Shown in pieces: positions 12,871-28,890 of a stretch of DNA of 64,000 nucleotides. The position numbers and the translations under genes are program-made. Below the pieces are notes generated by a model, which was given only the letters and a program-made list of their open reading frames with translations, was not told where the DNA came from and searched no databases. The stretch comes from Saccostrea echinata (lineage: Eukaryota): NCBI RefSeq assembly GCF_033153115.1, contig NW_026889774.1, positions 23,746,001 to 23,810,000 on the forward strand, in the 5' to 3' direction. How positions within the stretch are numbered: the stretch's first letter is position 1; each line of letters begins with the position of its first letter.

Positions 12871-13886
12871 ATTGAATGAAAATTAATAATTCTTACATAA
12901 ATGTATTCGTATTCGTAATAATAGCGAAACTATCATTTCGGATTATATTGACTAATCAGTGGAATATAAAATGTGACACAGTTGTGAAAGAATCAAATAT
13001 GCTGCTCTTTTATTAAATTAGACTGAGAAAATAGTGTAAAATCTTCCAATAAATTTGTAGAAGTTATCTCCCTTAACTTTCACGCTCTTTCATGTTTGCG
13101 TCATCAACTCATATTTCTCTCGAGGTATAATATGTATGCTGTTTTGGATCTCGTAACCAGCCTCTATAACCAGGCAGAGCGCATGCGTGAAATAAATTTC
13201 CATCGAGATCGGAAAACAGCAGAGAGGAAATTCGGAATATATAATGGAAACTAGTAATGCGGAATGATACTATAGTCAGATGCAGAAATTTTTGCATAAT
13301 TCGATCAACTTTTATTTAAAAAAGCAGAAGAATAAATGAATCAACTTTACAGTTAGTTTTTATTTATTTATTTATTTAATTAATTATTAATTTATTTATT
13401 TATTTAATTTATTTATTTATCATTCTTATAATTAATTGACTAAGTAACTGATTTATTTATTAAAAAATATATATTTGTATTTTTTTTAATTCATTTATAA
13501 CATTCTTTCCTTCATTTATTAATTATTCCATCCATTAATTAATTATCTATTAATTAATTCATTGATTTATTAATTTGTATGCATGTTTGTTTATTTATTT
13601 ATTTATTTATTTATTTATTATTCTAATAATTAAGTAATTGATTAATTTATTAAGAAGTTCATTTATTTGTTTGTTTATCTATTTATTATATTCATTCCTT
13701 CATTTATTTCGTATTCTATTTATTTATTTATTATTTATCTATTTATTTATGCATTCATTTATTCGTATTTTTATTTATTTCTTTATTTTTTATTTCTTTA
13801 TTGATTGATTGATTTATTTTTGCATTTATTTATTGATTTTTTTATGCATTTATCATTTATTTCTTTTATAAATTAATTATTTTTAC

Positions 13887-14660
13887 AGGGTTTGTATACT
13901 TATTACCAGGGTCTGTTTATGTATTGCCATAGTTTGTATACCTATCACCAGGGTCTGTATACCTATCACCAGGGTCTGTATACTTATCACCAGGGTCTAT
14001 GTACCTATCACCAGGGTCTATATACCCATCACCAGGGTCTGTATACCCATCACCAGGGTCTGTATACCCATCCCCAGGGTCTATAAACCTATCACCAGGG
14101 TCTATATACCCATCACCAGGGTCTGTATACCTATCACCAGGGTCCGTATACCTATCACCAGGGTCTGTATTATCTATCACCAGGGTCTGTATACCCATCA
14201 CCAGGGTCTGTATATCCATCACCAGGGACTGTATTATCTATCACCAGGGTCTATGTACCTATCACCAGGGTCTATATACCCATCACCAGGGTCTGTATAC
14301 CCATCACCAGGGTCTGTATACCCATCCCCAGGGTCTATAAACCTATCACCAGGGTCTATATACCCATCACCAGGGTCTGTATACCTATCACCAGGGTCCG
14401 TATACCTATCACCAGGGTCTGTATTATCTATCACCAGGGTCTGTATACCCATCACCAGGGTCTGTATATCCATCACCAGGGACTGTATTATCTATCACCA
14501 GGGTCTGTATATCTATCACCAGGGTCTATAAACCTATCACCAAGGTCTGTATACCAATCACCAGGGTCTGTATACTTATCACCAGGGTCTATGTACCTAT
14601 CACCAGGGTCTGTATACCTATCACCAGGGTGTGTATGCCCATCACCAGAGTCTATATACC
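13887..14660 (+). repeat. 21/22-bp minisatellite (CCAGGGTCTGTATACCCATCA)n, left arm
   Basis: About 35 units, including an internal ~254-bp higher-order duplication. Confidence 0.95.
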
Positions 14661-16904
14661 CTTCATCACGGTTTTTTCTTCCCTCGTGCAGGGTCTAGTT
14701 CCCATCTTTTTAGTAGGGTGACCTTCAACATAGTTTGCATTATGAAAATGAATCCAATTACTTTTTAGGGTGTCTTCATAAACGTAACATCTTGTGGAGA
14801 ACGTATGAGTTGTTTAATGAACTATAATGATTTTATTGTGATTAAGATGCATTGACTCTAATGTTATATTGATCTTATTTACTTTTTATTTTGTAGTGTA
14901 AGCCTGTCAAGGAGGAAGCAAAGGATATAGAAACTTATAACAATGGACAAAGATTTATAATTGTGTGAAACTATCTTTACATTGTAAATGCCAATGTATC
15001 CTGATTCCTCTATTGCATAAATCGAGAGAAATCTAAAAATTCCATTATGTTGTTTACTTGTTCCAGAAAAAATGTGAAGATATACATATCTACATAATTA
15101 ATCAATAAAGTGTGAAATTTTAAAAATTATCATAAAAGAAGAGCAACCAACACAAAGTTCAAATTTCTTCTATGTTCATGACAGTAGAACAGTAGGATAA
15201 TAGTGCCAAAATTTGTGTTCTACAAACCCTAATTGTCATGTTGTCAAGAAGGAGACCCAGTGTATTTTCACTGCATGGAAATGATATGGAATGTCTTTAA
15301 TCGTTTTTTGTTGTTTTTTTTTCTTTTTGGTTGGGATGCAATCGTCTATGGCATATTGTGACTGTCGTGGCGGCTCATCATATTTAAAATTATTATATAT
15401 TTTTAAAGTGGGATGTTCTGTTTAAAAGCTTAGGACCAAGGATCGAGTTATGATTTGAAAGTCGATCAAACTTCAATGTCAAGTTTATGAGGTTAAAAAT
15501 CAAAGTATATTTGGAAGGTCTTGTTACAGCTATGTTCATGTACAAGAAAATATTAAAGTCCTGTCTCATCAGGTGCAAAGCTTTGGCCAGGATTAAAAGT
15601 TTTGTAAAAAGAAAGTCAAATGCCAAGGTCAAAGATCTTAGGCTATATACATTCCAGTGACTTGTTATAGTTTTGTCACGGGTATTGCACAGGTCAATTA
15701 TGAAAACATATATCTCATTCCATACTAAGCTTAGGTCAGGGTTATTTTTTTTATAAGTATATCAAATTTCACTGACAAGGTCATAAGATAAAAAAAATAA
15801 ATTCAGAAAGATTTTGTAATTCGTAATTCATATGTGGAATATGAGAGTCCGATCTTCTCAAAATTATTATATATTTTCTAGGTGAATATTTCTTGAAATT
15901 GATAAACTAAACAAAAAATTATGACCAATGTTCAAATTTTTGTGATGAACAAACACATAGACTGTCCCGGCGTATTTGCTTTAGCAATGGCGAATAATTG
16001 AATAAAATTCCATGAAAGATAAATTGATAATTATGATAAAACGTTTTATTTGAAGTAGTGATATGTATATCTTTCCAAATTAATTTTATTAGCAATACAT
16101 ATATTCAAAGAGTAAGGCGTAGATAGTGTATTAACCCCCCACCCCTCCATTTATTTTTGTAAACTTTAAAATATCATGCTGGCAATTTTTTTTATGCTTG
16201 CTAAAATAAAAACTGATATATGAATAATTTACGGTCTAAAATTATTTCATATAAACACACTGCCCACACGTTAGGTGCCTGCAAACATCTATGTGCATGC
16301 AACAGAGGCAATTGATGTTACTTTTTTGTATATATGAGGTAAAAAGGTTTTTTTTGTTATATATACCTCCTGCATTTACAAGTGAGGTTTGAAATATTAA
16401 AATTTTATTTTAAGAAAATGCTCCGAATATTCGACTATCGTTCGAATAATGTTATCGAATAGTCGACTAAGGAAGATAAATATTTTGACATCCCTAAAAA
16501 TACACAGTAACAAGATTTCGAATATGAACTTTTCGCATAATTAAATATGAATCACAGGGATTTTTTAAATATAATTATGAAGTATACACAATTTCAAAAA
16601 TAAATCACAAGATAATCGAATATGAATTACAAAATTGAGTGTGTTTGTTTCTTATCTGACTATATCTTTGCGATTTCAAATAATTCTCCCATGTATCGTA
16701 CATTTTTGGGCAATTTCATGATTTTAATCATGTGCGGGCAAACACAATCTGTGATTAATGTGTTAACTGTTGATTCTACTTGTTTTATAAACAAAATATT
16801 TCATAGAATTTTCCTACTAGATTTAAAATTTGCAACCAGTTTAAGTGTTCTCAATTCTTTAATTTATTTGATAAGATAAATTAATCGAACGCTTTATTCG
16901 CATT

Positions 16905-22170: not shown

Positions 22171-22959
22171 TGTAAAAAATAATTAATTTATAAAAGAAAT
22201 ATATGATAAATGCATAAATAAATCAATAAATAAATGCAAAAATAAATCAATCAATCAATAAAGAAATAAAAAAAAAGAAATAAATAAAAATACGAATAAA
22301 TGAATGCATAAATAAATAGATAAATAATAAATAAATAAATAAATAGAATACGAAATAAATGAAGGAATGAATATAATAAATAGATAAACAAACAAATAAA
22401 TGAACTTCTTAATGAATTAATCAATTACTTAATTATTAGAATAATAAATAAATAAATAAATAAATAAATAAACAAACATGCATACAAATTAATAAATCAA
22501 TGAATTAATTAATAGATAATTAATTAATGGATGGAATAATTAATAAATGAAGGAAAGAATGTTATAAATGAATTTAAAAAAAAATACAAATATATATTTT
22601 TTAATAAATTAATCAGTTACTTAGTTAATTAATTATAAGAATGATAAATAAATAAATTAAATAAATAAATAAATTAATAATTAAATAAATAAATAAATAA
22701 AAACTAACTGTAAAGTTGATTCATTTATTCTTCTGCTTTTTTAAATAAAAGTTGATCGAATTATGCAAAAATTTCTGCATCTGACTATAGTATCATTCCG
22801 CATTACTAGTTTCCATTATATATTCCGAATTTCCTCTCTGCTGTTTTCCGATCTCGATGGAAATTTATTTCACGCATGCGCTCTGCCTGGTTATAGAGGC
22901 TGGTTACGAGATCTAAAACAGCATACATATTATACCTCTTCTCTCGGAGCAAAACAACA

Positions 22960-28890
<5,931 letters not shown>

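Follow-up and report, generated by a model that had tools for sequence, protein, structure and literature searches.

A 9.8-kb foldback element in the likely CHIC2 5' untranslated region of the oyster Saccostrea echinata: a probably young, segregating insertion

Foldback elements with tandem repeats in their arms are known from Drosophila and Meloidogyne. Galileo, a member of the P superfamily in Drosophila, has long terminal inverted repeats (TIRs), 7-bp flanking sequences, and non-autonomous copies made of two TIRs, and within a single copy the TIRs hold unequal numbers of tandem repeats (PMC3573991). The Mutator/Foldback element Tm1 of Meloidogyne has composite TIRs with variable short tandem units and mostly non-coding copies (PMC3169594), and Tetris of Drosophila virilis is also a foldback element with tandem repeats in its arms (PMC4079207). 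An element that shares these features, while differing from Tetris in host and in repeat unit, was found in a 64,000-nucleotide stretch of the Saccostrea echinata genome (assembly GCF_033153115.1, contig NW_026889774.1, positions 23,746,001 to 23,810,000 of the forward strand; herein referred to as the window). The element occupies positions 13122-22938 of the window (9,817 bp) and separates two divergent genes, GATB and a gene that is likely CHIC2. Foldback elements are well known, as are segregating insertions close to genes, and the general surprise of such a locus is therefore low.

The first letters of the element are GAGG and the last are CCTC. It is flanked on the plus strand by a direct repeat, TTCTCTC, at 13115-13121 and 22939-22945. 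Among the 13 lengths tried in a comparison of the two flanks (2 to 14), 7 was the only one that gave a match, length 4 giving none; the probability of a 7-base match by chance is about 1e-4 at the base frequencies of the window. The letter G comes next after TTCTCTC at both sites, and an 8-bp duplication with asymmetric ends is formally possible as judged from this copy alone. The right duplication ends 14 bp before the CHIC2 start codon at 22960. In the assembly the start codons of GATB and CHIC2 are 10,089 bp apart, and removal of the element with one duplication brings them to 265 bp. An earlier note on this DNA, made from the letters alone, had described a 9.8-kb foldback element with GAGG...CCTC termini, the 7-bp duplication, near-identical outer arms, the 14-bp distance to CHIC2, and a spacing of about 265 bp after removal. 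All of these descriptions were reproduced here, the outer 237 bp of the arms agreeing at 236 of 237 positions.

Each arm consists, from the outer end inward, of a 237-bp non-repetitive terminus, a (TTTA)n-rich tract of about 500 bp, and an array of 21/22-bp units, as delimited by arm alignment and repeat finding. In the left arm, on the plus strand, these parts lie at 13122-13358, 13359-13885, and 13886-14660, the array holding 36.7 copies and an exact internal duplication of 268 bp. In the right arm, on the minus strand, the terminus lies at 22702-22938, the tract at 22173-22701, and the array, with 131 copies and a decaying inner end, at 19389-22172. Alignment of the arms over 13122-13885 (764 bp, 99%) gave 753 matches, 6 mismatches, and 12 gap columns, a divergence of 0.8%. 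The two arrays have unit variants in common and match across roughly the outermost 110 bp, beyond which both the order and the number of units differ (35 parsed units on the left, 126 on the right); thus, slippage has likely added and removed units in each array separately. Independent change of this kind is reported for the TIRs of Galileo (PMC3573991).

Contigs of four public runs (X1, X2, X3, and X9), chosen from ten, were aligned to 22705-26100. The RNA labels of these runs are guesses, and only spliced joints were relied on; what follows concerns the 32 of 308 aligned pieces and 24 of 129 loose ends that were listed. Record 2 of X1 (1,825 nt) is spliced at two GT..AG introns of the CHIC2-like gene, and its two listed pieces are free of differences; it is therefore derived from mRNA of this species or one very close to it. 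This contig aligns without gaps from 22939, its position 19, and 18 unaligned letters precede that point. Compared over 18 letters, the native flank and the terminus of the element have 4 in common, the last not being among them, so that an allele lacking the element predicts a break exactly at 22939. Record 2 of X1 thus supports, as one contig, an empty allele whose transcript includes 18 nt or more from upstream of the insertion site, which in turn places the insertion within the CHIC2 5' untranslated region (UTR). The native intergenic region at 12871-13114, which stays on the GATB side, likely holds a shared promoter and, judging from this contig, at least the first 18 nt of the CHIC2 5' UTR. 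Transcription start sites cannot be read from contigs of this kind. The proposals of the earlier note that the insertion is polymorphic and lies in the CHIC2 5' UTR gain support from this one spliced contig, with its leading letters counted and not read.

Other copies of the element were also met in these contigs. Three contigs of X9 leave the terminus into unrelated flanks, two of them at 22938 and one at 22940, and record 1 of X1 likewise ends at 22938. The terminus copies in X9 carry up to 11 differences in 129 positions. The element therefore belongs to a multi-copy family with a shared boundary at 22938, some copies of which have diverged. All of the few foreign contig ends reach 22938, which mildly favors a duplication of 7 bp over one of 8 bp. 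Scans of metagenomes gave 0 matches for the terminus and 0 for the array unit.

The insertion is likely young and segregating. Its youth, also claimed in the earlier note, is supported by the low arm divergence together with the perfect duplication; gene conversion can hide age, and the core of the element contains older nested repeats. The earlier note proposed that CHIC2 is silenced on this allele, spliced across the element, or driven from the right arm; judged by the sequence, these three outcomes are not equally likely. We place at about even the chance that the element recently entered the 5' UTR of a single CHIC2 allele and truncates those transcripts that start at the native promoter, making this a null or weak allele. 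The element would have been moved by a transposase encoded elsewhere, as suggested by its ends, its target-site duplication, its other copies, and a core empty of genes. The 244-bp promoter region would have remained with GATB, and the CHIC2 coding sequence would have been displaced by 9.8 kb. A polymerase bound for CHIC2 would run into the left arm, which has a donor-like site 3 nt from its outer end (GAG/GTATAA at 13124/13125) and an ATG at 13132. AATAAA motifs of the left terminus at 13191 and 13331, and acceptor-like sites farther inside, would be met 9 kb ahead of the coding sequence. The filled allele would then be a null or a hypomorph that is probably rare or heterozygous and would for that reason persist.

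Several points weigh against this reading. No listed piece comes from the filled allele, and the loss of CHIC2 expression is a prediction. AT-rich DNA often contains the hexamer AATAAA, whose presence is no proof of cleavage. The 18 leading letters of the X1 contig are known by number only, not by sequence, and just one of the four runs reaches the site: X2 starts at 22953, X3 starts at 22983, and X9 has no listed piece of exon 1. The similarity of the arms may come from conversion, with the nested repeats of the core being old. Finally, the CpG richness of the terminus, its promoter-like palindrome, and the presence of terminus pieces in contigs of all four runs favor another outcome, in which the right terminus would act as a new outward start.

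In that case CHIC2 would still be made from the filled allele and would be uncoupled from the GATB promoter, the 237-bp terminus serving as a portable CpG-rich promoter that replaces CHIC2's half of the shared one. We regard this as the main alternative, possible but tentative. The palindrome CGCATGCG, which we take to resemble an NRF1/Ewg site, occurs in the 64 kb only in the two termini (at 13180 and 22873), and its right copy lies about 80 bp from the CHIC2 start codon. The observed/expected CpG ratio is 1.16 in the terminus and 1.20 in the native intergenic region vs. 0.49 in the window, and the plus strand has no ATG from 22879 up to that of CHIC2. Outward rescue has reportedly been seen for maize hcf106::Mu1, which was counted in favor of a restart, as was the presence of promoters in the TIRs of Mutator-like elements (MULEs). 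The latter is described in PMC3310237. The terminus contigs, however, may derive from any copy of the family or from DNA, and they give neither strand nor start. Transposon promoters also mostly face inward. Furthermore, none of the listed contigs bridges terminus and CHIC2 at 22938/22939, although the samples may lack the filled allele, and for this reason the missing bridge is not evidence that the filled allele is silent. Shuffled sequences fold as well as the new 5' region does (z 0.08).

Splicing of the whole element as one 9.8-kb intron, which would use the donor 3 nt past the left boundary and the AG at 22948-22949, is improbable. In its boldest version this idea would have the ends of the element double as splice sites, and the spliced UTR would be restored to within one base, being one G shorter than that of the empty allele. 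The donor resembles the likely donor of GATB exon 1 (CAG/GTATAG), and the candidate acceptor has 12 pyrimidines among the 14 letters upstream, which come from the right end and the duplication. That acceptor is a GAG, however, which is rare in animals, and four better YAG acceptor-like sites (14691, 14896, 15066, and 18181) as well as 53 AATAAA motifs come first on the plus strand of the element. The X1 contig is not the spliced form, for which a one-base gap would be expected, since it is gap-free there. An old or fixed insertion, placed upstream of the start region or at a harmless part of it, would require the 18 letters to be an adapter, a chimera, or another exon, and we give it similarly little weight. 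Those letters, with number and no sequence to go by, would allow it; the decayed nested repeats of the core and the diverged terminus copies of X9 point to older members of the family. Against it stand the position of the break, which coincides with the first letter of the duplication, the lack of an AG ahead of 22939 that could serve a splice joint, and the divergence of 0.8% between the arms. Least probable of all, and very unlikely, is an artefact of assembly in the palindrome or in its placement. Assembly is difficult for long inverted repeats and for tandem arrays, and exact duplications of 164-268 bp inside the arrays could reflect this; the copy number of the arrays may be wrong. The duplication is nevertheless clean, the arms differ by substitutions as well as by indels, the arrays are ordered differently, which argues against a mirror copy made by the assembler, and independent runs have the identical terminus boundary. 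The window has no Ns other than those of a 146-base assembly gap at 60554-60699, far from the element.

A young insertion in the CHIC2 5' UTR would be in keeping with what is described for oysters. Hemizygous DNA makes up 3-14% of the genome in four other species of oyster; in Crassostrea, TIR DNA elements form the largest class of variants related to transposable elements, and in C. ariakensis, 81% of 5,484 polarized variants are insertions (bioRxiv 10.64898/2026.02.10.705023). Saccostrea is not among the species mentioned in the available text of that preprint. The insertions described there are likewise young and segregating and are a main source of structural variation; about 79-85% of those variants are shorter than 1 kb, whereas the present one is 9.8 kb long and likely lies in a 5' UTR (bioRxiv 10.64898/2026.02.10.705023). 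Segregating insertions near genes are thus common in oysters, a point that the earlier note did not weigh. The reference haplotype of a farmed oyster may hold a disrupted CHIC2 allele. If carriers exist, the two alleles would form a natural pair for studying how a 265-bp bidirectional promoter responds to a large insertion on one of its sides, and they would also test whether a foldback terminus can replace a promoter.

The core between the arrays (14661-19388, 4,728 bp) is non-coding. No Pfam family above the cut-off, and no transposase match, was found in its 81 open reading frames (ORFs) and six read-through frames. Sub-threshold matches (Arc_MA and Glypican in ORFs, Arc_MA and Alpha-E in read-through frames) were taken as chance. 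Rfam gave nothing within 12800-23200. A short nested element with repeats of about 147-148 bp lies on the plus strand at 16903-17456; it is 79-82% like a copy at 33995-35121 and is presumably HINE/Helentron-like. A second, inverted and more decayed copy of this repeat family lies on the minus strand at 18258-19389, is about 71% identical to 34.1-35.0 kb, and adjoins the right array. Inside this second copy sits a 339-bp miniature inverted-repeat transposable element (18347-18693) with 15-bp perfect inverted ends that begin with GG, between two TTAA; we assume it to be Kolobok- or piggyBac-like. The core of the foldback element thus has two levels of nesting. Because it contains decayed repeats, the core is older than the apparent age of the insertion and would either have been brought from a donor copy or be accompanied by arms that were homogenized.

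Several further observations were made inside the element. Three of the four strong acceptor-like sites cluster at 14691-15110, together with donor-like sites at 14803 and 14984 and an AATAAA at 15104; they are spaced like introns of 94 and 83 bp, have no Pfam match, and may be a decayed or captured gene end. The (TTTA)n tract of each arm resembles an inward intron, with a donor-like start, ACA/GTTAGT (13349-13357, the junction being at 13351/13352, and mirrored at 22703-22711), and an end at TTTTTACAG (13888). The alignment of record 14 of X3 ends at 22709, the exon side of ACA/GTTAGT, and that of record 1 of X1 ends at 22711; both stops are a weak hint, as just 4-6 reference bases were left there. 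ORFs of 219-623 codons across the arrays were rejected as genes, the array unit having no stop in any inward frame, and none of 6,923 candidates for longer proteins with the array repeat was found at E 1e-5. Two smaller inverted elements joined into a composite were also considered and rejected, as blastn finds the terminus just twice in the window.

The start codon of GATB lies at 12868-12870 on the minus strand, as placed by translation, and exon 1 extends to about 12773. Its downstream exons match Pfam GatB_N (E 1e-14). A plus-strand gene with an exon at 7413-7688 that matches Pfam MIEAP (E 1e-14) converges on the 3' end of GATB. The gene that starts at 22960 is likely CHIC2; this name rests on a weak Pfam Erf4 match below the cut-off (E 0.005), an Atlas lead of high confidence, and a presumed likeness to the human CHIC2 protein. 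Its coding exons 1 (22960-23093), 2 (23535-23587), and 3 (24422-24579) were delimited on the plus strand by GT..AG joints, of which that of intron 1 was found in three of the four runs and that of intron 2 in all four. Two putative last exons, placed near 27740 and 28840 by translation only, follow on the same strand. In mammals, CHIC2 is a partner of the ubiquitin ligase STUB1/CHIP (PMC9574515; bioRxiv 10.1101/2023.07.17.549407).

Arrays of 146-169-bp units were found in introns and spacers of the window, at 26143-27547, 34074-35034, 43447-44093, and 51477-52119. The first of them, with 9.6 copies at 92%, lies within a CHIC2 intron. We take these arrays to be like the Helentron-borne repeats of oysters. 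At 45687-46612 there is a tandem repeat with a period of 333 bp and a subperiod of 166 bp (2.8 copies, 95%). Another array, of 55-bp units (38486-39953; 26.5 copies, 90% match), is located inside a minus-strand multi-exon gene that is presumably UTP18, three exon pieces of which have no Pfam match. A single-exon Toll-like receptor of 616 aa, with LRR and TIR protein domains and 78-80% identity to proteins of S. cucullata, is encoded at 56330-58177.

By its structure the element at the GATB/CHIC2 locus is a non-autonomous foldback element. It has the long modular inverted arms, the unequal arm arrays (36.7 vs. 131 copies), and the target-site duplication of this class, and dispersed copies with the same boundary are represented by the three X9 contigs, which hold termini with foreign flanks rather than whole copies. 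Nothing on its family appears in the available text of the EDTA v2 preprint, PMC12905397, PMC8268682, PMC10294476, or PMC6201952. The literature searched, which excluded Repbase, Dfam, and supplementary libraries of transposable elements, yielded no description of a GAGG-ended foldback family; the family, undescribed there, may already be catalogued.

The termini and the duplication of the element compare differently with each of the known systems. Galileo ends in CA..TG, whereas the oyster element has GAGG..CCTC. Sola2 and Sola3 have GRG or GAG termini and a 4-bp target-site duplication, so that the oyster element fits their ends and not their duplication. Animal hATw elements have a 7-bp duplication, although kilobase mirror arms such as those found here are untypical of hAT. 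The 7-bp length is also common to the oyster element and to fungal hAT7 (PMC12730594) and Repbase entries of hAT (PMC4455052). The arms of Galileo reach about 1.3 kb at most (PMC3573991) vs. 1.5 and 3.5 kb here, and the Pfam search of the oyster core found no remnant of a THAP domain or P transposase. Duplications of Tm1 are mostly 9 bp long (PMC3169594), and those of MULEs, which tend to insert in or near genes, measure 8-11 bp (PMC6446971), as compared with 7 bp in the oyster element, or 8 bp only with asymmetric ends. As in MULE-like elements, the inverted repeats here are hundreds of bp long. In contrast to Tetris, nothing in the window suggests that the 21-bp unit also exists as free satellite arrays. 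Taken together, these comparisons lean tentatively toward a hAT type with a 7-bp duplication and then toward a MULE; some other superfamily is less probable, and P/Galileo is the least probable of those considered. A further possibility is that GAGG ends combined with a duplication of 7 bp characterize a lineage that has so far not been linked to foldback architecture.

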